This document shows, one piece after another, positions 5,052-62,731 of a stretch of DNA of 64,000 nt. Source of the stretch: an uncultured Candidatus Saccharibacteria bacterium (GTDB lineage: Bacteria; Patescibacteriota; Saccharimonadia; CAILAD01; BJGX01); contig CAYRNO010000001.1 in the NCBI GenBank assembly GCA_964425715.1, forward strand, positions 10,645-74,644, written 5' to 3'. The position numbers were made by a program, and so were the translations under genes. Every line of letters begins with the position of its first letter. Within the stretch, counting starts at the first letter, position 1. The notes under the pieces are model-generated. The model did no database searches and had not been told where the DNA came from. It saw nothing but the letters and a program-made list of their open reading frames with translations.

Positions 5052-5582
5052 GTGATGAAGGTAAAACCAGTAGTACCTACCTGGATGGTATCGGAGGCCA
5101 ACAAGATTTTCTTCGAAATGCTCTGGAACCATGGATACAGAGGTATCCTTTGGGACCTCGAACGGACTCTGATACCACTTGGTTACAGAAGTATGACAGA
5201 ATATGCATTGCAGGTAGTGGAAATGGCAAGATCAGCAGGATTCGTACAGACTTGCTGTACTAATTCCGAATATCCATATGGAAATGATGTTCTCCGGCAT
5301 TTCTGTCACCACTTAGCTCAGCCGGATTCCGATAACGGCATTCTCAAGAAGCCCGATCCCTCCATATTCCTTCTGGGTTGCGAGATTCTCGACCTAGAGC
5401 CTGAGAAAGTCGTGATGGTGGGTGACAAGCTGCTATTCGATACCAGCCCAGCTGCTGCTCTTGGTATGGGTACAGTATTGGTCAATCCGCTTCCTGGTCA
5501 TGATGTGTGGGCCGAATATCTGGCGTTTCGTCGTACTCGAGAGCGCATGGCGCTCAGGCAACTTGGTATCAAAAGACCATAA
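5052..5582 (+). CDS. HAD-superfamily phosphatase (YqeG-like, subfamily IIIA)
   Basis: 176 aa; HAD motifs (ILWDLERTL ... KKPDPSIFLLGCEIL ... VVMVGDKLLFD); elevated local GC; SD AAAGGAGG upstream. Confidence 0.6.
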   Translation: MMKVKPVVPTWMVSEANKIFFEMLWNHGYRGILWDLERTLIPLGYRSMTEYALQVVEMARSAGFVQTCCTNSEYPYGNDVLRHFCHHLAQPDSDNGILKKPDPSIFLLGCEILDLEPEKVVMVGDKLLFDTSPAAALGMGTVLVNPLPGHDVWAEYLAFRRTRERMALRQLGIKRP

Positions 5583-6229: not shown

Positions 6230-6305
6230 GCCACCTTAGCTCAGTTGGTAGAGCGATGCTTTCGTAAAGCATAGGTCATCGGTTCGATCCCGGTAGGTGG
6301 CTCCA
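6230..6305 (+). tRNA. tRNA-Thr (anticodon CGT)
   Basis: Acceptor GCCACCT/AGGTGGC, D-arm GCTC AGTTGGTA GAGC, anticodon stem ATGCT/AGCAT with loop TTCGTAA, T-arm ATCGG TTCGATC CCGGT, discriminator T, CCA. Confidence 0.85.
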
Positions 6306-11376: not shown

Positions 11377-11453
<77 letters not shown>

Positions 11454-11464
11454 TTTTTATTACA

Positions 11465-11492
11465 TTGTAAATACATTTATAGTTGATATAAT
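11465..11492 (+). promoter_or_regulatory. sigma70-like promoter (TTGTAA-16-TATAAT) for the thrS leader
   Basis: -35-like TTGTAA, 16-nt spacer, consensus -10 TATAAT. Confidence 0.4.
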
Positions 11493-11498
11493 ACAAAC

Positions 11499-11663
11499 TA
11501 GTTGAATAAGACTATACATAAGCCCAACCAACTTATGTGTCTCGATCTAGCAAGCGTTATTGTTAGGACAAAGCGATCCACCAAGGATAAGCCCGGTGGA
11601 ACCTCCCGCGAGAGTGGGACCGGGCATGAGATGGTGGTTTTATTATTTAAAAAAGGAAATATT
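11499..11663 (+). promoter_or_regulatory. thrS leader: putative reduced T-box-like attenuator
   Basis: Stem ACATAAG/CTTATGT with apical loop CCCAACCAA (ACC-A = Thr codon plus purine); GGTGGAACC...CGCG resembles the T-box core AGGGUGGNACCGCG, and its UGGA bulge complements a UCCA tRNA end; nested hairpin (CCACCA...CCCGGT..ACCGGG...TGGTGG) followed by a T-run just before the thrS SD. Confidence 0.35.
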
Positions 11664-13475
11664 ATGGAATACGACAATATGCACAAAATACGACATAGCC
11701 TAGCACATATACTTGCTGCTGTAATGCAAAATAAGCACCCAGAAGCTAAGTTTGGGGTAGGACCTGTGGTTGGGGATGGTTTTTACTACGATATGCTCTT
11801 AAACGAGCCGCTAAAGCTTGAGGAGCTCAAGAGCATTGAAAGTGATATGCGAAAAATCATATCTAGTGGTATAGATTTCGTAAGAGAAGAATGGGCAATA
11901 GATGATGCAATAGAATACTTTAATAAGAAAGGCCAAGTATATAAGGTAGAATTACTAAAAGACCTCAAGCAAAAAGGTACTACTTCTCTTAAGGATGCTG
12001 GGGATAGTGACCTTGTAGATGGTAATGGCAATATAGAAACAGTTACTGTTTACAAAACTGGGGAATTTGTAGATCTATGCAAAGGCCGCCATGTATCAAA
12101 TACCACTGAGCTAGCCAAAATAGGCTTTAAATTGACCAAAATCGCAGGTGCATATTGGAGAGGAAATGAAGCAAATGACCAGTTGCAGCGTATATATGGT
12201 GTTGCTTTTACAACAGAATCAGAATTATCTAAATTCTTAAGTATGTTGGAAGAAGCAGAGAAACGAGACCATCGAAAGCTTGGCAAAGAACTTGATCTGT
12301 TTACATTCTCCGATCTGGTCGGGCCGGGTTTACCAATGTATACCCCTCGTGGAACTGTATTAATCGAAGAGCTTAAGGCTGTGCTCAAGGATTTAGGAGC
12401 AAAGTACGACATGCAGCAAGTTTCAATACCGCATCTTGCCAAAATAGATCTTTACAATACGTCAGGGCATGCTGAGAAATTCGAAGATGAATTATTCATG
12501 GTCCAGAGTCATTACAAGCAAGAATTCGTATTAAAACCCGTCAACTGTCCACATCATACCCAGATATATGCTTCAAGACCAAGAAGTTATCGTGACTTAC
12601 CAATCAGGTATGTAGAGCAGACTATGCAGTATCGAGATGAAAAGCCCGGGGAACTAGGTGGATTACAACGTACTAGAGGGTTTACAGTAGATGACGGACA
12701 TACATTCTGTACCTTAGAACAGATAGAGCAAGAAGTAGAAATGATAATAGAAATCATATCAGGTTTTTATCAATCTCTAGGTCTTTGGGGAAATCATTGG
12801 GTTTCTCTGTCAGTGCGGGACTCAAAAACCCCAGACAAGTATATCGGAGATGATAAAGACTGGGGGCAATCTGAATTTATTTTGGATAAAGTAGCTAAGA
12901 GCAAGGGATTGAATGCAAAACGAATGGACGGCGAAGCTGCATTATATGGTCCAAAGCTAGACTTTATGTTCAAAGATGCTCTAGGCAGAGAGACACAGCT
13001 GGCTACAGTTCAGCTTGATTTTGCTACCCCAAAAAGGTTCGGACTTGTTTATACCGACCAAGAAGGTAATGAGATTAATCCAATAATGATCCATCGCGCT
13101 ATATTTGGTTCATTCGAAAGATTTATCATGATACTTATTGAGCATTTTGCAGGAGCTTTTCCTCTCTGGCTAGCACCTGAGCAGGTAAGGATATTGCCAG
13201 TTTCTGAGAAGTTTGTGGATTATGCCCAAGAAGTTGGGTTAAAACTAAAAGATTCCAATATAAGAGCAGTAACTGATGATAGTTCAGAGTCATTAGGTAA
13301 AAGAATTCGTAATGCTGAGATGATGAAGGTGCCATATATATTGGTAGTAGGTGAAAAGGAGACCTCATCCAAAACTGTGGCTGTAAGAAAATATCAAAAA
13401 GGTGACATAGGATCTAGTACAATAGATGACTTTTTAACAACATTAAAAGAAAAAATCAAAAATCGTTCTCTATAA
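11664..13475 (+). CDS. thrS: threonyl-tRNA synthetase
   Basis: Class II ThrRS: N-terminal MEYDNMHKIRHSLAHILAAV..., catalytic core, C-terminal anticodon-binding domain; start taken at the Met after SD AAGGAAA (the longer ORF from 11502 would read through the structured leader). Confidence 0.9.
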   Translation: MEYDNMHKIRHSLAHILAAVMQNKHPEAKFGVGPVVGDGFYYDMLLNEPLKLEELKSIESDMRKIISSGIDFVREEWAIDDAIEYFNKKGQVYKVELLKDLKQKGTTSLKDAGDSDLVDGNGNIETVTVYKTGEFVDLCKGRHVSNTTELAKIGFKLTKIAGAYWRGNEANDQLQRIYGVAFTTESELSKFLSMLEEAEKRDHRKLGKELDLFTFSDLVGPGLPMYTPRGTVLIEELKAVLKDLGAKYDMQQVSIPHLAKIDLYNTSGHAEKFEDELFMVQSHYKQEFVLKPVNCPHHTQIYASRPRSYRDLPIRYVEQTMQYRDEKPGELGGLQRTRGFTVDDGHTFCTLEQIEQEVEMIIEIISGFYQSLGLWGNHWVSLSVRDSKTPDKYIGDDKDWGQSEFILDKVAKSKGLNAKRMDGEAALYGPKLDFMFKDALGRETQLATVQLDFATPKRFGLVYTDQEGNEINPIMIHRAIFGSFERFIMILIEHFAGAFPLWLAPEQVRILPVSEKFVDYAQEVGLKLKDSNIRAVTDDSSESLGKRIRNAEMMKVPYILVVGEKETSSKTVAVRKYQKGDIGSSTIDDFLTTLKEKIKNRSL

Positions 13476-19921: not shown

Positions 19922-20105
19922 GAATATATTATATACTTAGTAGATAGTCTGCTGCGTTCGAATTTTATAGTCTAATAACTTTTTCTGATTAATCATAACC
20001 ATAGGGAACTCTAGATTACATCTAGCGAAAGTTAGATTGTTGCGGGTACCCACCTAGCTTTTAGCGGGAACGGTTATTAAGAGACTTTACGGCGTCAGCG
20101 GACTT

Positions 20106-20648
20106 TTAAGCACTTATTTTAAACATTTTCATGTATTTCTTATCATTATCGATGTAACTAGCCATTACAAGCTTAATCTCGTATTTTAGCTGATATTGCT
20201 CACGCATTTTATTAATGAGATCTGAGGGATTATATGGATATATCCATATTCCCTTGGAGTATTGTACAAACCCAAATCGCTTTACTATGAGTAGTATTTG
20301 GTTGCGTGTAGTCTTTTTGCTATCCGGAAGGTTTATAGTAATCAAATACCATCTACCATTCCATGCTGCTGGTCGCAAATCAAACTGAAGTAAATCTGCT
20401 TTTTTGAGATGCTCTTGACCCTTGATTGTTATTTTAAATACTTTTTCGTTATCGACATTGCCGACAGATATAAATCCTTTTTTTGCAAGGAGTGTCGTGG
20501 AGTCTATGATCCTCCTTTGAGGGGTTGTAGTTTTGGAGTTATGAAAAAGCTCCAGTAGTACCTTGGAGCTGCACAGATCACTCAAGGAGATGATTTTTTT
20601 ACGAGCAATAGTTTTGAGTATTTGCGCCGTCTTATTCACATTTTTCAT
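20106..20648 (-). CDS. PaaX-like transcriptional regulator (wHTH + PaaX_C-like)
   Basis: 180 aa; N-terminal wHTH; C-terminal WNGRWYLITINLPD...GFVQYSKGIWIYP resembles the PaaX C-terminal domain. Confidence 0.4.
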   Translation of the reverse strand: MKNVNKTAQILKTIARKKIISLSDLCSSKVLLELFHNSKTTTPQRRIIDSTTLLAKKGFISVGNVDNEKVFKITIKGQEHLKKADLLQFDLRPAAWNGRWYLITINLPDSKKTTRNQILLIVKRFGFVQYSKGIWIYPYNPSDLINKMREQYQLKYEIKLVMASYIDNDKKYMKMFKISA

Positions 20649-25515: not shown

Positions 25516-25552
25516 TAGACAAAAATCATTAATTGTAGTATTATATAACTGT

Positions 25553-25916
25553 AAGTTAGTGGGTAATCGACCGTCAAAGACGGTAGGAAAGTCCGAACAG
25601 TATAGAGTACAGTAGTTGCTAACGGCAACCAGAGGTAACTCTCGGGAAAGTGCCGCAGAAACAATACCGCCTATCACTATAGCGATAGGTAAGGGTGAAA
25701 AGAGTGAGGTAAGAGCTCACAGTTTTGATAGGTGACTATCAGAAGTGGTAAACCCTACTGACTGCAAGATTTTGGGCCCGTCTACTTTTGTAGCAGAGTT
25801 TCTCGCTCTGATTGGGTATATCGCATGATTCGCCATTCGGCGGACACCCGTAAGGGAAGATAGATGATTACCGATTCATCTATGATGGATTACAGAATTC
25901 GGCTTATAGCTAACTT
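25553..25916 (+). ncRNA. rnpB: RNase P RNA (bacterial type A)
   Basis: P4 strands AGGAAAGUCCGAAC and ACAGAAUUCGGCUUA; GGGUGAAAAGAGUGAGGUAAGAGCUCAC conserved region; GUGGUAAACCCUAC; P1 pairing AAGUUAG/CUAACUU; followed by an intrinsic terminator. Confidence 0.85.
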
Positions 25917-25921
25917 ATACC

Positions 25922-25952
25922 AAAATACCCCGTAAATGCGGGGTATTTTGGT
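25922..25952 (+). terminator. rho-independent terminator after rnpB
   Basis: AAAATACCCCG-TAAAT-GCGGGGTATTTTGG. Confidence 0.6.
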
Positions 25953-40086: not shown

Positions 40087-40548
40087 ATCGATAGAGCTTA
40101 TGTTGAATATGATAGCCTTATAATATGCAGTAGAGTTAATAATGTCAACAAACTACATAATAATTGACAATAATAACAATTGAGTGTAAAATATTCCTAA
40201 TGGGGCTGACTAGCTTTGACATAGAGAACATTAAAATATATTTGCGAGCCGGGCTGGAATGCACGTTAGCCGTTCCAAAAACTTAAGTGCAAATACACTT
40301 ATTAGTAAGATAAAAGCAGCGTTTACGTTGCCAACTCTTGCACCAGCATACGCTTAATTGAGTATGCCGTCTAACTTACTGACACCAGATAGATAAGTAG
40401 GCGCCAATTATCTGGTTGCTACATATTCGCCTAGTGCCGAAGATGGGTAAGCTCATAGTACTAGGAAGAGATCTACTTGTTTGTTGATTTATAGAGTAGA
40501 TATCTTTGAAAACAATTTCAAATCAACTATGCTTGTAGACGATATATA

Positions 40549-42093
40549 TTAATTCTTCATGGACGAGGGTGCGATTCCCTCCAGCTCCACCAAAAGGGAC
40601 TTTCGAGTAATTCGGAGGTCTTTTTTGTTTGGGGTCAACCTGTACAGGGTGCATATTGAGTTAGTGCTAACTTTTTTATTTGAGTTGAAGATAATTCCAT
40701 CAGGGAATAGCAATTGTTGGCACAAAGTGCGTTCATCTTGATTTAGTTCCCACCAATCTGTTTTTAATCTGTTACTATATTCCAGCCCAAACTTAACAAA
40801 TTCTACCAAATCCCCCTGTAGTTTATTTGAATCTGCTATTTGTTTAGATAACTCGCTAATCTCTAGCTGTATCTTTCTAATTTCAGCCTGTATACCGTCT
40901 TTGAACTCAGACGTCACTTTAGCAAGTTCTCTATATAGCCCAGACAACTCTATTTCGAGCGATTCTCGCTGCCTTTGAAGCGTTTTAAGACTTCTGATGT
41001 TATCTTGTTGCTTCTTATTCCAAACAGTTGCTAAAGCTCTCATAAAGTCTTTCTGTTGAGCATTTTGATAATTAACTTGCAGTAGTATATTAGTAATAGC
41101 CTTGTGTACATCTTGTCGATGATATTGTTTACCACATTTTCTGCAACGATACTTTGGGTAAAACTTACCATTACCATTACCTTGATTTGAACCTGTAAAC
41201 TTAGCTCCTGGTTGACAGTCGTGAATTAGTAATTTGTTCATTGGAAAGTTGGGGTTGTACTGCAATTTTCTAAAAGACCGAATCTTACGACCATTTATTA
41301 CCTCAACTATACTATCGTGTTCCTCCTTTGAAATCATTGGTGTGTGTAAACCATTCTCGCACCTTGCATTCACTTGTTTACCCACAACTATAATGCCGCA
41401 ATAGTAAGGGTTCACTATAAACTTTACGAACTTATCTATCTTCATTGGTGTTCTGCCGTTACTAATGAATTCGGTTTTGTTGAGTTGCTTTAGTGCTTCA
41501 GATGGTGTAGCCATCCTGTTTGCGATGCTTTTTAGTGCTTGTTGAAAAGGTACTCCCTGAATCGGGTGGAAAACGTGTACTCCTGGCTTATCGCTATGCA
41601 TATAACCTGGCAAAGGTGGGAAAGTATAACGACCTTCTTTGACTGCAGCCCTATGACCAGTAACTGACTTTCTTTGTCTTTCCTCGTTACTGCTTTCAGC
41701 AGCAAAGTATTTCATAAATTTCATAAGCTTAGCTGTCATATCGTCAGTGTTTAGTTCAGGGTCAGAGGCATACCACACTTTTACACCAACCATTCGAAAT
41801 TCAACCTCAAAATGAAAAGCTTCATCTACAGACCTCATAAACCTATCAGGTTCGTCAACGATAAGATATTTGACTGCTCGATTTTTTCTGCAAAAATCTA
41901 ACATTTCTCTAATGTCTCTACGCTTAACATTTGTTCCTGCTTTACTCGAAACATCGCCAGACCATTCTTTAATAATCTCAGCATCAAGTTCTTGAGACGC
42001 TCTCATAACAGAACTCTGTTGTCTGTTTAGGCTATTGCTTTGCTTCTGTTCAGCAGTCGAGACCCTACAGTTTGCTATTGCTTTTATTTTCAC
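40549..42093 (-). CDS. large serine recombinase (phage-integrase type)
   Basis: 514 aa; N-terminal catalytic block IANCRVSTAEQ (serine recombinase RxSTxxQ); zinc ribbon CRKCGKQYH; C-terminal coiled coil. Confidence 0.85.
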   Translation of the reverse strand: MKIKAIANCRVSTAEQKQSNSLNRQQSSVMRASQELDAEIIKEWSGDVSSKAGTNVKRRDIREMLDFCRKNRAVKYLIVDEPDRFMRSVDEAFHFEVEFRMVGVKVWYASDPELNTDDMTAKLMKFMKYFAAESSNEERQRKSVTGHRAAVKEGRYTFPPLPGYMHSDKPGVHVFHPIQGVPFQQALKSIANRMATPSEALKQLNKTEFISNGRTPMKIDKFVKFIVNPYYCGIIVVGKQVNARCENGLHTPMISKEEHDSIVEVINGRKIRSFRKLQYNPNFPMNKLLIHDCQPGAKFTGSNQGNGNGKFYPKYRCRKCGKQYHRQDVHKAITNILLQVNYQNAQQKDFMRALATVWNKKQQDNIRSLKTLQRQRESLEIELSGLYRELAKVTSEFKDGIQAEIRKIQLEISELSKQIADSNKLQGDLVEFVKFGLEYSNRLKTDWWELNQDERTLCQQLLFPDGIIFNSNKKVSTNSICTLYRLTPNKKDLRITRKSLLVELEGIAPSSMKN

Positions 42094-49690: not shown

Positions 49691-51442
49691 GTGCAAAGAA
49701 TGACTATAATTAGCTATAATATAATAATGAAAAGCTTAAAATCAGATGTATACGATATAGTTGCTAGCATTTTTGTGGAAGTATTTAGTACCGATCCAGT
49801 TGAATTTAACGTAGATTATTGTGATCTCAAATACGGGCATTTTGCCTGCAATGTTGCTCTTACAAATTCGAAGAATCTTAAGCTCAACCCTGTGGTAGCC
49901 GCAAATCAGTTGGTAAAAAAACTGAAAGATGATGATTGGATGAAGAATGTAGAAGTTCAGAAACCAGGATTTATTAATATTTCCCTCAAAGACAAAATAC
50001 TACTAGAGGCTTTGTATAATAGGTATCCGGATGAAATCCGGCAATATATAGAGATGGGTGGTACCGATCAGACAGTTGTAATCGATTATTCACATCCGAA
50101 CATTGGCAAACCTATGTCAGTACATCATTTGCTTTCTACGGTCATAGGAGATGCTATTAAACTAATCTATAAAGACACTGGGCATAATGTCATAGCAGAT
50201 AATTTTGTTGGTGATATGGGCACTCAGTTTGGCAAATTGATATATGCTATCAAGACTTGGGGTGATATGCAGGCTATAGAGGCTAATCCAGTACCAGAAC
50301 TATTGGCGCTTTATGTGAACTATCATGTAGAATCCGAGAAGAACCCAGAGCTAGACGATTATGCTAGATTGGAATATAAAAAGATTGAGGACAACGATCC
50401 AGAGAATAGGGCATTACTAACAAAAGTACAGGCTTGGAGTATGGCGGAAATGGAGATGATTTATAGACTTCTTGGTGTGGTATTTGATTATTATAATGGT
50501 GAGAGTTTTTATGAAGATAAACTAAAAGACATAGTGGATCTCGGTATCAAGAAAGGAATATTTGTAAAAAGCGAAGGTGCATTGGTCTGTGAATCAGATA
50601 ATCCAGATGATCCGCCAGCTCTTATTCAGAAGAAAGATGGAACTAGTTTATATCTCACAAGAGACTTGGCGAGAGTTGCATATTGGGAGCAACAGTGGCA
50701 TCCAGATCTCATGATAAATGTGGTAGATGTGGCCCAAACTCTTCAGATGAGCCAAGTATATTCAGTTTCAGAGAAGCTAGGTCTCACGGATGCCAGAAAC
50801 ATCCATGTAGTATTTGGAAGGATGGAGTTCAAGGATAAATCTATGAGCACTAGAAGGGGTAATGTAATATTTATTACCGATCTCATAGATGAAACAAAAC
50901 GCAGAGTGCTTTCTCAAATAGTTTCACTTTCTAAATCTTTGAGTAAGGATGATCAAGTACAACTTACAGATATATTGGCTATCAATTCGATTAAATACAA
51001 TATACTTAAGCAGAATCGGTCATCCAGTATAATCTTTGATTGGGATAATATGTTAAATATCGAAGGAAATAGTGCTCCATATCTGGCATATACAGCAGTC
51101 AGGATGCAATCTATTATAAGAAAGAGTGAAGGATATATCGACAAATCAGATAGTACTAACAGTAAAGCTCTTGAGGAATTAGAACTGGCTGAAATCAAAC
51201 TTATTTTGCATGTTGATAAATTAGCTGAATCTTATCATGAAGCTAAGAACAATTTTCAACCAAGCATACTTGCAAGTTATTGTTATGATATCTGTAGGCT
51301 ATACAACAGCTGGTACAACAGTTATAAGATAATTGAAGAGAGTGATGCAAAACCACACAGGATAAGGCTCAATTGTTTAACTCTAAAGGTGGTTAAACAG
51401 TGTTTTGAGTCTCTCGGTTTGAGAATTCCAAACAAGATGTAA
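49691..51442 (+). CDS. argS: arginyl-tRNA synthetase
   Basis: Class I ArgRS: SHPNIGKPMSVHHL (HIGH-like), catalytic core, C-terminal DALR anticodon-binding domain; the start may be the Met at 49727. Confidence 0.85.
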   Translation: MQRMTIISYNIIMKSLKSDVYDIVASIFVEVFSTDPVEFNVDYCDLKYGHFACNVALTNSKNLKLNPVVAANQLVKKLKDDDWMKNVEVQKPGFINISLKDKILLEALYNRYPDEIRQYIEMGGTDQTVVIDYSHPNIGKPMSVHHLLSTVIGDAIKLIYKDTGHNVIADNFVGDMGTQFGKLIYAIKTWGDMQAIEANPVPELLALYVNYHVESEKNPELDDYARLEYKKIEDNDPENRALLTKVQAWSMAEMEMIYRLLGVVFDYYNGESFYEDKLKDIVDLGIKKGIFVKSEGALVCESDNPDDPPALIQKKDGTSLYLTRDLARVAYWEQQWHPDLMINVVDVAQTLQMSQVYSVSEKLGLTDARNIHVVFGRMEFKDKSMSTRRGNVIFITDLIDETKRRVLSQIVSLSKSLSKDDQVQLTDILAINSIKYNILKQNRSSSIIFDWDNMLNIEGNSAPYLAYTAVRMQSIIRKSEGYIDKSDSTNSKALEELELAEIKLILHVDKLAESYHEAKNNFQPSILASYCYDICRLYNSWYNSYKIIEESDAKPHRIRLNCLTLKVVKQCFESLGLRIPNKM

Positions 51443-58941: not shown

Positions 58942-59937
58942 ATGAAATCCAAACTAAAATCAATTACAGATGAATATTTGATAGAAGCAATAACTGCTTT
59001 TGATAAAGCTACAACTAAGATGCAGTTAGATCAAGCTAAAGCTAAATATTTGGGAATAAAAAGCGTACTTGTTGAAGAGCTTAAAATGATTCCTCAAATA
59101 AATATAAATGATAGGGCAGAGGTCGGTAAATTACTAAATGATCGAAGGAACGAACTGAACAATCTGTATCGGCAGGCAGTTGATAAGAGTAGTGAAGAAA
59201 CAAGTGATTATTCAATAGACATGAGTAGACCTTTTACACCTGAAGAATATAGCTATGGTCATTCACATCCTACAAGCAGAGTACTGGAGCAGACTTTTGA
59301 AATATTTACGCGATTAGGATTTGCGATAATAGACAGTGAAGAGATAGAAACTGATTGGTATAATTTTGAAGCACTGAATATGCCGAAAGAACATCCTGCT
59401 CGTGATATGCAAGATACCTTTTATATAGATAATGGTAAGATGAATCTACTACCTAGATCTCATACATCAGGGATGCAAGTTCGTTTTATGGAGGATAATA
59501 AGCCGCCTTACAAGATAATAGTACCCGGAAGAGTGTTTCGTAATGAAGATGAAGATGCCACACATGCCTGGATATTTAATCAAGTAGAGGGATTGGTAGT
59601 GGGGGAGGGTGTATCGATGTCGGATCTTAAGGGTACTCTCCTAGAGGTAGTTAGGGGGTTACTAGGTCCAGATGTAAATATAAGATTTAGGGCGAGCTAC
59701 TTTCCATACACAGAGCCATCTGTAGAGCTCGACTGTAAATACAAAGGGAAGTGGCTCGAGCTAGGTGGGGCAGGGATGGTACACCCTCAAGTCCTTAGAA
59801 ATGGTGGTGTAGATCCGGATAAATACACTGGTTTTGCGTTTGGTTGGGGTGCAGAAAGATTTGCAGTAATAAAATATGGACTCAATGACTTGCGTGAACT
59901 TTGGCGACCTAGATTTGACTTCTTGGAGCAATTTTAA
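58942..59937 (+). CDS. pheS: phenylalanyl-tRNA synthetase alpha subunit
   Basis: 331 aa; class II motifs (FRNEDEDATHAWIFNQVEG, GFAFGWGAERFAVIKYGLNDLR). Confidence 0.9.
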   Translation: MKSKLKSITDEYLIEAITAFDKATTKMQLDQAKAKYLGIKSVLVEELKMIPQININDRAEVGKLLNDRRNELNNLYRQAVDKSSEETSDYSIDMSRPFTPEEYSYGHSHPTSRVLEQTFEIFTRLGFAIIDSEEIETDWYNFEALNMPKEHPARDMQDTFYIDNGKMNLLPRSHTSGMQVRFMEDNKPPYKIIVPGRVFRNEDEDATHAWIFNQVEGLVVGEGVSMSDLKGTLLEVVRGLLGPDVNIRFRASYFPYTEPSVELDCKYKGKWLELGGAGMVHPQVLRNGGVDPDKYTGFAFGWGAERFAVIKYGLNDLRELWRPRFDFLEQF

Positions 59938-59950
59938 ATATGTAAATATT

Positions 59951-62731
59951 ATGAGAATACCTATAAATTTAATAAATGAATACTTAAAGATTAAACTTAC
60001 TACTAATGAAGTAGTAGAGTGTTTAGAAAAAACCGAAATTGAAGTAGAAGAGATAATTGCTGCAAAAAGCCTGCATAAGAACATAGTCACTGCTAGGGTT
60101 ATAAAAATTGATAAGCATCCCAATGCAGATAGGCTGAAGTTAGTATTGCTTGGTTTGAAAGATGATAAAACTGTAAAAGTAGTGTGTGGTGCATCTAATG
60201 TAGAATTAAATCAAATGGTGGCGTATGCGAAGCCGGGTAGTGTACTCCCGGATGGGAGCAAAATAAGCAAAGCAGTAATAAGAGGTGTGAATTCTGCCGG
60301 AATGCTGTGTTCGCCTAGAGAGTTAGGTAAGTCAGATGATCATGAAGGGATAGCTGTTCTCGACCCTGACCTCCCCCATGGAATATCATTGTGCGACATA
60401 GAAGATACGCAAGATATCATAGACATTAAGACCCCCGCTAATCGCTTTGACATGCTTTCCTTCGTCGGTATCGCAAGAGAAATATCTGCAAATTCTAAAA
60501 ATAATTTATTACTAGAACCTAAAAGCGTAAATTTATTGTTTGATAAAAAAGAGCAAACAAAAATTGAAGATAAACAAATATGTAAAAGATTTATAAGTGC
60601 AAGAATAAAAATCAACAATAAAGTAAAGTCACCACAATGGCTTGTGGATAACTTATTGGCAGCAGGGATGAGGCCAATCAGTCCAGTAGTAGATATTACC
60701 AACTTTGTAATGCTAGAAACAGGACAGCCCTCTCACGCATATGATGCAAATAAATTGAAAAGTGACTTACAAGTAAGATTTGCTAAGAAAAATGAAAGAT
60801 TAATCACCCTAGATGGAAGCTCATTGGACTTAGATAAATCAGATCTAGTAATAGTAGACAAAAACAAACCTATTGGGTTAGCTGGAGTGATTGGTGGCAA
60901 AGATACGGAAACCGATGAAAAAACAGATGAGGTAATATTAGAAGTTGCCAACTTCGATAAAACTACAGTTCGTAAGGCTGCGCTTAGACATGGCATAAGG
61001 ACTGAGGCAAGTTCAAGATTTGAAAAAGGCCTTCCACTCCCCCTTCAAGAATATGCAATCAAAAGACTGATATATTTGTATAAGAAAATTTGCAAGGGCG
61101 AATTGGTAGGCGAAGTAAATGACCAACTTTATTCCTGGCCTTGGATTCAACACGTTGGTCTTAGAATTCGAAAAGCTGAAAAATTTTTAGGAATGACACT
61201 GGATGAAAAGCAAATACTAGTAGGACTCAAAAAAAGAGGATTCGAAGCAGAGCACTTCTCTATAGTAAAAGAAGCTAGAAAACATTTAGGTAAACCTTAT
61301 AAATGGGGAGCTAATTTTAAACAAGACGGCATTGATGCTTTTGACTGCGGATATTTTGTTGACTACGTTTACTCTCTGATCGGAGAAATGGTAGGCCATC
61401 AATGTTTGCAGCTTTTTGAGTCTGGACAGCCAGTAGAAGTGAAAGATCTAAAGCCTGGAGATACAGTCTTTAGAGATGGACCATGGGAAAAATTGACAAG
61501 AAAAGAAAGAAAAGGCCTTTCGCATGTCGCCATATATATTGGAAATGGGAAAATAATTCATGCTGCCGATACATATAGAGGAAAAGATGGAAAATGGAAA
61601 AAATATCCTAAAGATAAGCAAGTAGTAATCGAGGAATCAGTTGAAACTATTACTAAAGACCCAGACTATAGAGGAGCTAGAAGGTATGTTGATAATTTTA
61701 ATCACATCCTTGCAATAACAGCACCCTGGTGGCGCGAAGATGTTCGTATAGAACAAGATATCTATGAAGAAATTGCAAAAATAGTGGGTTACGATAATCT
61801 GCCTGCTACTCTCCCCTCACTTCCTCCAGAATCATATAATGAACATCAGATGATGATGAGAATGACCAAATTACGAAATTTACTTGTAGATAGAGGATTG
61901 TTTGAAGTAATGTCATATTCATTCGTTAGCCACAAACATCTGCAAAACGATAATCTAGATCAGGATAAACATCTCAAGGTAGTAAATCCATTGAGCACTG
62001 AACAAGAGTTTCTTCGCACAACCCTTATGAGTAGTCATGTGCAGATAGTAAAGAACAACACAAACTACTCACAAGATAGATTTGGATTCTTTGAAATATC
62101 AAGAGTATACGAGAAAATATCTTCAAAACATGAAAAATCGGAAAAATGGCTATTGGCAATAACGGTCGTTGGCGATGAGGGTTATGTGAAAATAAAATCT
62201 TTGCTAGATGCGTTAGATTCGAAGTACGTTTGGGATTTAAAATACGAACCATTACAGAATAATAGATATCAAAAAGGAATTGCTGCAAATATTCTAGTGG
62301 GTGAAGAATTAGTAGGAAATTATGGTCAACTAAGCAAAAACCAATTAAAGAAACATTATAAAAATCCAAGGCCAATTAGTTATTGCGAAATAGATATTGA
62401 TAGATTAGATATAAGTATGAAAGATTTCAAAGTCCAAAACATAGCAAATTATCAACTCATAAGTCGTGATGTTACCCTTGAGATAGATAATGATATTTGG
62501 TGGCAACAATTGCAAGATAGCATAAAGCTAAATGAAGAATTAAAAAAAATAGAATATATAGATGAGTTTATAAATGATGATCTTGAAAAAGCTAATAAAA
62601 AACGAATAAGTTTCAGGCTAATATTAGATCTAGGAGCTCAACCTACCAGTCAAGAAATAACGAATATTGTTGATAATATTACTAAAAATCTACTGAAAAA
62701 AGAATTATTTAAAAACTCGACAGTTATCTAA
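59951..62731 (+). CDS. pheT: phenylalanyl-tRNA synthetase beta subunit with an inserted NlpC/P60-like domain
   Basis: PheT N-terminal and tRNA-binding domains, B3/4, B5 (LGMTLDEKQILVGLKKRGFEAE ... APWWREDVRIEQDIYEEIAKIVGYDNLP), C-terminal B6-B8; start taken at the Met at 59951 (MRIPINL). An insert of about 155 aa (61253-61721) inside B5 has NlpC/P60 hallmarks. Confidence 0.85.
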   Translation: MRIPINLINEYLKIKLTTNEVVECLEKTEIEVEEIIAAKSLHKNIVTARVIKIDKHPNADRLKLVLLGLKDDKTVKVVCGASNVELNQMVAYAKPGSVLPDGSKISKAVIRGVNSAGMLCSPRELGKSDDHEGIAVLDPDLPHGISLCDIEDTQDIIDIKTPANRFDMLSFVGIAREISANSKNNLLLEPKSVNLLFDKKEQTKIEDKQICKRFISARIKINNKVKSPQWLVDNLLAAGMRPISPVVDITNFVMLETGQPSHAYDANKLKSDLQVRFAKKNERLITLDGSSLDLDKSDLVIVDKNKPIGLAGVIGGKDTETDEKTDEVILEVANFDKTTVRKAALRHGIRTEASSRFEKGLPLPLQEYAIKRLIYLYKKICKGELVGEVNDQLYSWPWIQHVGLRIRKAEKFLGMTLDEKQILVGLKKRGFEAEHFSIVKEARKHLGKPYKWGANFKQDGIDAFDCGYFVDYVYSLIGEMVGHQCLQLFESGQPVEVKDLKPGDTVFRDGPWEKLTRKERKGLSHVAIYIGNGKIIHAADTYRGKDGKWKKYPKDKQVVIEESVETITKDPDYRGARRYVDNFNHILAITAPWWREDVRIEQDIYEEIAKIVGYDNLPATLPSLPPESYNEHQMMMRMTKLRNLLVDRGLFEVMSYSFVSHKHLQNDNLDQDKHLKVVNPLSTEQEFLRTTLMSSHVQIVKNNTNYSQDRFGFFEISRVYEKISSKHEKSEKWLLAITVVGDEGYVKIKSLLDALDSKYVWDLKYEPLQNNRYQKGIAANILVGEELVGNYGQLSKNQLKKHYKNPRPISYCEIDIDRLDISMKDFKVQNIANYQLISRDVTLEIDNDIWWQQLQDSIKLNEELKKIEYIDEFINDDLEKANKKRISFRLILDLGAQPTSQEITNIVDNITKNLLKKELFKNSTVI

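Follow-up and report, generated by a model that had tools for sequence, protein, structure and literature searches.

A probable, much reduced T-box attenuator with an apparently Stem III-coupled terminator in the thrS leader of a Saccharibacteria genome

We conclude that the leader of thrS, the threonyl-tRNA synthetase (ThrRS) gene, in a 64-kb stretch of DNA from an uncultured Candidatus Saccharibacteria bacterium (the whole 64,000-nucleotide [nt] stretch is called the window here) is probably a much reduced T-box, that is, a transcription attenuator responsive to transfer RNA (tRNA) for threonine, with its terminator coupled to Stem III. T-boxes are the textbook example of RNAs that sense which tRNA is bound and whether it is charged. 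Judged from its sequence, this leader most likely senses uncharged tRNA-Thr. The leader, which with all its elements is on the plus strand, occupies about positions 11499-11663 and sits between tRNA-Val(GAC) and thrS; the T-box anatomy spans 11509-11648. An earlier note on this DNA had suggested that a reduced T-box, its specifier displayed in an apical loop, precedes thrS, and this suggestion is now supported by covarying helices and by sub-threshold but specific Rfam T-box matches to homologous leaders. We do not regard the leader as a chance pattern, because leaders of this architecture, with covarying helices, precede thrS in dozens of related genomes.

The leader can be read, from 5' to 3', as a succession of T-box elements. 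A truncated Stem I of 34 nt (11509-11542) is built from a 4-bp base AGAC/GUCU, a 5' bulge UAUA, an upper helix CAUAAG/CUUAUG (11517-22 / 11532-37), and a 9-nt terminal loop CCCAACCAA (11523-31). The apical loop in which the earlier note had seen ACC followed by A is this one; the threonine codon ACC lies at 11527-29, at the 3' end of the loop, and the purine on its 3' side completes the putative specifier (11527-11530). The window Stem I contains no AG bulge, no distal loop platform, and no internal specifier loop, nor does it contain the GA (kink-turn [K-turn]) motif, though most relatives retain GA. Stem II is missing, and only 1 nt separates Stem I from a Stem IIA/B-type pseudoknot (11543-11566), in which IIA would pair the CG at 11543-44 with that at 11555-56 and IIB would pair CUAGCAA (11547-53) with UUGUUAG (11560-66). 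An F-box-like loop, GCGUUA (11554-59), contains the 3' CG of IIA. The purine string and Stem III follow at 11571-11590, as AAGCG (11571-75), AUCC (11576-79), the loop ACCAA, GGAU (11585-88), and AA (11589-90). Stem III of T-boxes is flanked by a purine string in the form 5'-RRRxG ... AA-3' (PMC7583486); AAGCG-Stem III-AA fits this rule, and the motif is kept across the leader family.

An antiterminator-type element takes up 11591-11625. It consists of A1 (GCCCGG/CCGGGC), the bulge UGGAACC (11597-11603), and A2 (UCCCGC-GAGA-GUGGGA, to 11619); A1 and A2 have 6 bp each, the bulge is exactly 7 nt long, and the 3' side has no unpaired base. The T-box core, AGCCCGGUGGAACCUCCCGCG at 11590-11610, is the stretch whose UGGA had been proposed earlier to pair with the UCCA end of tRNA-Thr. 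A linker, AUGAGA, leads from the A1 3' strand to the 3' strand of the terminator helix, UGGUGG (11632-37), which is directly adjoined by the U-tract UUUUAUUAUUU (11638-48). The 5' strand of that helix, CCACCA (11578-83), overlaps Stem III: it takes in the final two paired bases on the 5' side of that stem and most of its loop. The nested hairpin and T-run read as a terminator in the earlier note are thus present, and the folding energy of the leader as a whole beats that of shuffled controls (z = -2.95).

Our comparison set comprised 80 thrS loci from genomes of the Candidate Phyla Radiation (CPR; Patescibacteria) together with metagenome contigs; L-numbers label individual loci or contigs. 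It is very unlikely that ACC and UGGA are coincidental features of a conserved structured leader that senses no tRNA and carries just a constitutive terminator or a processing site. Such a leader would agree with the lack of an Rfam match to the window leader, but the specifier triplet is a threonine codon in all 48 leaders in which it can be read (43 ACC, 4 ACU, and 1 ACG), with variation at the wobble base alone. The base after the codon is A in 45 of these and G in the remaining 3. Within the subfamily to which the window belongs, 24 of 27 leaders have C as the third base of the codon, 2 have U, and 1 has G, and the 21 other CPR leaders have ACC (19) or ACU (2). Furthermore, the bulge UGGAACC is invariant in the 27 leaders, reading UGGA throughout, and is complementary to UCCA, in which each of the six tRNA-Thr genes that we examined ends (window, L092, L095, L100, L110, and L111); it thereby matches their U73. 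Across six tRNA types, only tRNA-Gly also has U73; those for Arg, Val, and Pro have A73, and that for Asp has G73. The purine string, the F-box-like loop, and the 7-nt bulge all stand at T-box positions as well. Both elements whose conservation in related thrS leaders the earlier note had suggested checking, the codon loop and the element containing UGGA, are kept. In the window itself, a tRNA-Thr(CGU) gene (6230-6305, plus strand), an isoacceptor of the inferred ligand, ends in U73-CCA. The sole ACG specifier belongs to L092 (leader 12498-12629), and the same contig has a tRNA-Thr(CGU) gene at 2202-2277. The ACU specifiers are those of L003, L065, L071, and L107.

Escherichia coli thrS is controlled by an operator to which ThrRS binds. 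Here, too, the gene is thrS and the leader has a conserved hairpin loop, so that one could picture hairpins that mimic the anticodon arm of tRNA-Thr and a synthetase that represses its own synthesis by binding them. However, the triplet in the loop (ACC, ACU, or ACG) is a codon and does not resemble an anticodon (NGU), and some 135 nt separate the loop from the start codon downstream, so that it is not beside the Shine-Dalgarno sequence. The invariant UGGAACC bulge within A1/A2 and the specificity of the Rfam T-box matches to homologous leaders also speak against such an operator, which we consider highly improbable and reject.

Support for the individual helices comes from a MAFFT alignment of the 27 subfamily leaders, which was not fitted to any structure. 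Its invariant positions are the A and C of the codon, the A that follows it, both CG dinucleotides of IIA, the flanks of Stem III, and UGGAACC. RNAalifold, run on the plain alignment, independently recovered the Stem I base, Stem III, A1, and A2, with compensatory changes in 13 of 21 pairs. The proposed partners are paired in 96.1% of alignment cells, versus 84.0% after shuffling and at most 44% when the partners are slid; 14 of 24 pairs change on both sides, and none of 500 shuffles reached the observed score. A1 is paired in 99% of cells and A2 in 95%, with two-sided changes in 9 of their 13 pairs, and Stem III is paired in 100%. Indels caused MAFFT to misalign upper Stem I and IIB, which were realigned by covariance model. 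In the resulting alignment of 37 CPR leaders, which leans towards the model, 87.2% of cells are paired versus 57.7% after shuffling; in this same model-leaning alignment all 32 pairs show two-sided changes, a result that 0 of 500 shuffles equaled. These include all 10 pairs of Stem I and all 4 of Stem III, the latter being 95% paired across the 37 leaders.

The hairpin of the IIA/B element occurs in each of the 27 subfamily leaders, with a stem that varies while remaining complementary, an invariant CG in a GCGUUA-like loop, and an invariant CG upstream. Two of the IIA pairs never vary and hence show no covariation; the third is formed in only 17 of 27 leaders, and IIB is only 59-71% paired in the broad alignment. 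In two homologous leaders (L038 and L020), Rfam aligns the equivalent region to the IIA/F-box positions of the T-box model and omits Stem II.

The same patterns of change bear on another explanation of the region, namely that it encodes a 54-residue N-terminal extension of ThrS in an open reading frame (ORF) starting at TTG 11502. The frame is indeed open from 11502 to the thrS ATG. Nevertheless, the substitutions among relatives are those of compensatory base pairing and not codon-like, and most relatives have an in-frame stop 3-12 codons before the ATG (4 codons in L001, whose ThrS is 93% identical). In addition, a Shine-Dalgarno sequence precedes ATG 11664, and the short form matches the thrS profile from its residue 10 onwards. 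A coding extension is scarcely conceivable on these grounds and was rejected, in keeping with the suspicion voiced earlier that the long ORF is spurious.

The T-box model of Rfam does not recognize the window leader, and this counts against our interpretation. At the gathering threshold, which is 93 bits for RF00230, Rfam reports no T-box in the window and none in 40 related loci. The window falls below the reporting limit of that model, neither the window leader nor that of a close relative (L008) is matched at E<=10, and no family of Rfam 15 matches the window leader. The earlier note had named the lack of a T-box covariance match among the grounds for giving up the T-box; we find no such match, and we consider its absence overridden by a chain of homology to leaders that Rfam does recognize. 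At one end of the chain is L038, whose leader scores 54.4 bits (E=1.6e-11, sub-threshold) with RF00230. Only upper Stem I (74 model positions reduced to 7 nt) and Stem II are deleted from that alignment, and the Stem I base, IIA/F-box, an AAAGUG string, Stem III, and the antiterminator are all aligned. The leader of L020 scores 24.2 bits (E=8e-4), likewise sub-threshold, and RF00230 is its sole match.

At the other end of the chain is a covariance model, R1, built on the MAFFT alignment of the 27 non-identical subfamily leaders. It has a single match in the 64-kb window, at 11504-11625 (93.7 bits, E=2e-23). Among the CPR loci, R1 gives one match per locus in 36 of 80, each on the thrS strand and upstream of the thrS match. 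It also gives one match, again on the thrS strand, in each of 21 metagenome contigs, with the ThrS N-terminal motif downstream. R1 scores L020 at 54.8 bits and L038 at 24.2 bits, and the window leader is thereby linked to the T-box-like sequences that Rfam detects. The metagenome contigs had come from a scan with the subfamily pattern, which returned 37 stretches; 21 were true thrS leaders, and the other 16 were chance matches in GC-rich coding DNA that R1 rejected. By simple pattern, about 45 of the 80 CPR loci have [AG]TGGAACC 50-400 nt upstream of thrS, and most of these leaders parse as A1, a 7-nt UGGAACC, and A2, with no unpaired 3' base and with highly diverse stem sequences. The standard Rfam model, we conclude, is missing a whole branch of the T-box family.

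R1 finds no second T-box in the window, and the other TGGNACC matches fall inside coding ORFs, one at 5124 in an unannotated 176-amino-acid ORF (5052-5582) and one at 50059 in argS. The argS and pheT genes (49691-51442 and 59876-62731, both plus strand) have no T-box-like leader, no R1 match, and no TGGNACC upstream. A sub-threshold Rfam match to HPnc0260 at 11415-11542 on the minus strand is merely the complement of tRNA-Val and was discarded. Several loci with a CPR-type ThrS and the same leader (L024, L032, L038, L044, and L076) are titled Bdellovibrionales or Gammaproteobacteria, and these bins are probably mislabelled.

The part of the leader that departs furthest from expectation is its terminator. 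Of the alternative folds that had been suggested for checking, none competes for the strands of A1 or A2, for there is no downstream complement to GUGGGACCGGGC, which makes up their 3' strands. The competing element instead appears to be Stem III, with the antiterminator nested inside the terminator. Before the terminator 3' strand has been made, the predicted fold contains Stem III and A1/A2 (-24.9 kcal/mol); once that strand is present, the predicted minimum free energy structure has an outer helix around an intact A1/A2 (-29.2 kcal/mol). The terminator fold is thus predicted to be favoured by about 4 kcal/mol without ligand, and the outer helix has a pair probability of 0.62-0.69 in the full leader. 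An alternative off-state, in which UCCACC of Stem III pairs with GGUGGA of the bulge, was dismissed as weak (about -8 kcal/mol versus -29 for the terminator fold) and unsupported by L010 and L003.

A helix of 5-10 bp that ends at the U-run and pairs with the Stem III apex is found in 28 of 28 subfamily leaders. It occurs in 11 sequence versions, for example, CCACC/GGUGG, CCGCC/GGCGG, CCAGU/ACUGG, CCAGUU/AGCUGG, CUCACC/GGUGAG, and CACUCGCCGU/ACGGUGGGUG, and in a permutation test the observed value was reached by 0 of 2000 permutations. By the measure of covariation, both Stem III and the terminator that consumes its apex are under selection, because each of the two helices covaries; that mutually exclusive helices should both be selected is what a two-state switch predicts.

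We therefore picture the switch, on the strength of sequence and predicted folds, as follows. The GGU anticodon of uncharged tRNA-Thr would pair with ACC, and its 3' UCCA end with UGGA. Binding would latch Stem III and the purine string onto the discriminator, as in canonical T-boxes (PMC7583486), and the latched state would keep CCACCA away from the terminator strand, allowing RNA polymerase to read through into thrS. With charged tRNA, or with none, the weak 4-bp Stem III would be displaced, and CCACCA:UGGUGG would close a long hairpin that still holds A1/A2, ending transcription at 11638-48. The switch element would then be Stem III and not the 3' halves of A1 and A2.

Several further observations weigh against this interpretation. 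Transcriptional T-boxes generally need a long Stem I with a distal T-loop platform for fast tRNA capture, and Stem II is reported to be essential where Stem I is truncated (PMC7583486); both of these reported needs for tRNA capture, the Stem I platform and Stem II, are absent here. The main steric sensor of the aminoacyl group is described as a basal G·U pair in A2 (PMC7583486), whereas the basal A2 pair of the window is U11604-A11619. Of the 27 subfamily leaders, 24 have U-A in this place and 3 have C-G; of the 37 CPR leaders, 19 have U-A, 6 have G·U, and 6 have G-C. The terminator leaves A1/A2 undisturbed, so the canonical switch logic does not apply, and the Stem III mechanism is one that we infer. 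Below a 7x6 interior loop the terminator stem has just 6 bp, an unusual form for an intrinsic terminator, and a simple terminator scan did not flag this composite structure, whose loop exceeds 8 nt. No gene for the ACC-reading tRNA-Thr(GGU) lies within the window. Lastly, the layout varies among relatives. L107 and L114 have an enlarged Stem III loop that contains the whole of the terminator 5' strand. In the leaders of seven further Saccharimonadales (L015, L016, L020, L022, L025, L065, and L077), a self-contained U-tract terminator hairpin stands 0-1 nt past the A1 3' strand and shares no bases with A1/A2 or Stem III. Terminators that abut the antiterminator in this way (L015, L020, L025, and similar leaders) are explained by neither the canonical nor the Stem III model. 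L015 and L025 have no Stem III at all.

These exceptions bear on an alternative, according to which the leader is a T-box whose CCACCA:UGGUGG helix is not an off-switch. The helix could instead belong to the ligand-bound fold, as a pseudoknot that joins the Stem III loop to the 3' tail, or it could be a leaky constitutive terminator, with control exerted through RNA stability, pausing, or translation. Such an arrangement would account for A1/A2 being intact in both predicted folds, for the 5' strands of L107 and L114, which could pair without opening Stem III, and for the terminators of L015, L020, and L025, which overlap no T-box helix. Against it, the helix ends exactly at the U-run in 28 of 28 leaders, the signature of an intrinsic terminator, and in other CPR lineages the 3' strand forms 15-20 bp with all of the Stem III region, an arrangement incompatible with Stem III. 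Translational control in particular has no visible basis, because every predicted fold leaves the Shine-Dalgarno sequence free. We regard this alternative as unlikely, though it deserves more weight than any other that we considered, and we favour a switch in which the terminator is coupled to Stem III.

Leaders from other CPR lineages show this logic again, and in a stronger form. In L023, L032, L037, L039, L041, and L045, the distal 3' strand pairs with all of the Stem III region, and the resulting helix encloses an intact A1, bulge, and A2; in some of these leaders the end of the purine string joins the long terminator stem. Two distant CPR leaders (L044 and L076) have the canonical terminator arrangement, as apparently does L038, judging by its sequence. 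The chances seem to us evenly balanced that Patescibacteria harbour a widespread and so far unrecognised class of transcriptional T-boxes that lack the elbow platform and Stem II, couple the terminator to Stem III, and let A1/A2 persist in both states.

A sigma-70-type promoter lies at 11465-11492 on the plus strand, as had been proposed (TTGTAA-16-TATAAT). Its -35 hexamer is TTGTAA (11465-70), and after a 16-nt spacer comes an extended -10 element, TGaTATAAT, with the hexamer at 11487-92. The promoter has 10 of 12 consensus matches, with TG preceding the -10 hexamer, and the predicted transcription start is at about 11499. Relatives have comparable -10 boxes at the same distance. Downstream of the terminator, the Shine-Dalgarno sequence AGGAA (11654-58) precedes thrS, the presumed regulated gene, which runs on the plus strand from ATG 11664 to a stop at 13475 and encodes 603 amino acids. 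Relatives back ATG 11664 as the start. The protein scores 634.9 bits against TIGR00418 (cut-off, 383.65), with the profile alignment beginning at residue 10; the sequence accordingly begins 9 residues before TIGR00418 position 1, near the HxxxH editing-domain motif. Its closest relative is the ThrS of L001, from a Saccharibacteria metagenome-assembled genome, and ThrS relatives as a whole assign the window to Candidatus Saccharibacteria (TM7). From its sequence, the window ThrS appears to lack the N-terminal TGS domain, which is probably kept by several relatives whose T-box sits 200-400 nt further upstream.

The upstream neighbour of the leader is tRNA-Val(GAC) at 11377-11453. In many Saccharimonadia loci this gene precedes thrS by no more than roughly 1 kb, and in the window and in L001 it is directly adjacent. 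Elsewhere in the window, and all on the plus strand, are an RNase P class A RNA (25551-25922, 219 bits), a transfer-messenger RNA (40202-40592) with the tag ANTLISKIKAAFTLPTLAPAYA, and an Rfam match to 6S RNA (19943-20108) that, at 47.8 bits, barely exceeds the gathering score of 46.4.

Full-text searches of the literature turned up no publication that connects T-boxes with CPR, Patescibacteria, or Saccharibacteria, although the searchable library is incomplete and an earlier description is possible. A leader family that dispenses with the platform and Stem II yet ends in a terminator, and that is conserved in many CPR lineages, makes the minimal needs of tRNA recognition directly testable. 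If our interpretation is true, the leader would be among the smallest natural tRNA-sensing switches, and a terminator built from Stem III would represent a different way of coupling aminoacylation sensing to gene expression. Charging would be read through the engagement of Stem III and the purine string, not through the annealing of the A1/A2 3' strands. It would also add a cis-regulatory mechanism in Patescibacteria, whose gene regulation is little studied.

The leader overlaps only in part with known systems. With canonical transcriptional T-boxes (RF00230; Bacillus thrS and tyrS), it shares a specifier codon with a following purine, a putative IIA/B element with an F-box-like loop, RRRxG-Stem III-AA, a U-tract terminator, and the succession of A1, a 7-nt UGGNACC bulge, and A2, in which N matches the discriminator base. 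It differs from them in the absence of upper Stem I (AG bulge and elbow platform), which places the codon in the terminal loop, and in having no Stem II and no GA motif. Its basal A2 pair is U-A, the 5' strand of its terminator is the Stem III apex, and its antiterminator is nested. The canonical F-box is CCGUUA or CCGUCA, and the window loop is GCGUUA. The E. coli thrS operator precedes the same gene and also lies in a structured 5' leader. There, however, a protein binds mimics of the anticodon arm beside the Shine-Dalgarno sequence, whereas the window loop presents a codon, lies far off, and is accompanied by a T-box discriminator and a terminator.

Placement of the specifier in a terminal loop has reportedly been described for the ileS class of T-boxes by Sherwood and coworkers (2015). 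The actinobacterial ileS T-boxes (Mycobacterium and Nocardia; class II in TBDB, PMC7778990) resemble the window leader in their truncated Stem I without an elbow platform, their IIA/B pseudoknot (a putative one in the window), and their complete discriminator (PMC7583486). In contrast, they keep a long Stem II with an S-turn and act on translation by sequestering the Shine-Dalgarno sequence (PMC7583486), whereas the window leader has no Stem II, a free Shine-Dalgarno sequence, and a U-tract terminator as its output, and it belongs to another gene, thrS, in the phylum Patescibacteria. Finally, glyQS T-boxes, which naturally do without the Stem II domain and are still transcriptional switches (PMC7583486), are similar in that respect. 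They differ in keeping a long Stem I with the distal platform, in having no IIA/B element, and in a terminator that competes canonically with A1/A2, in place of the Stem III coupling that we propose for the Saccharibacteria leader.

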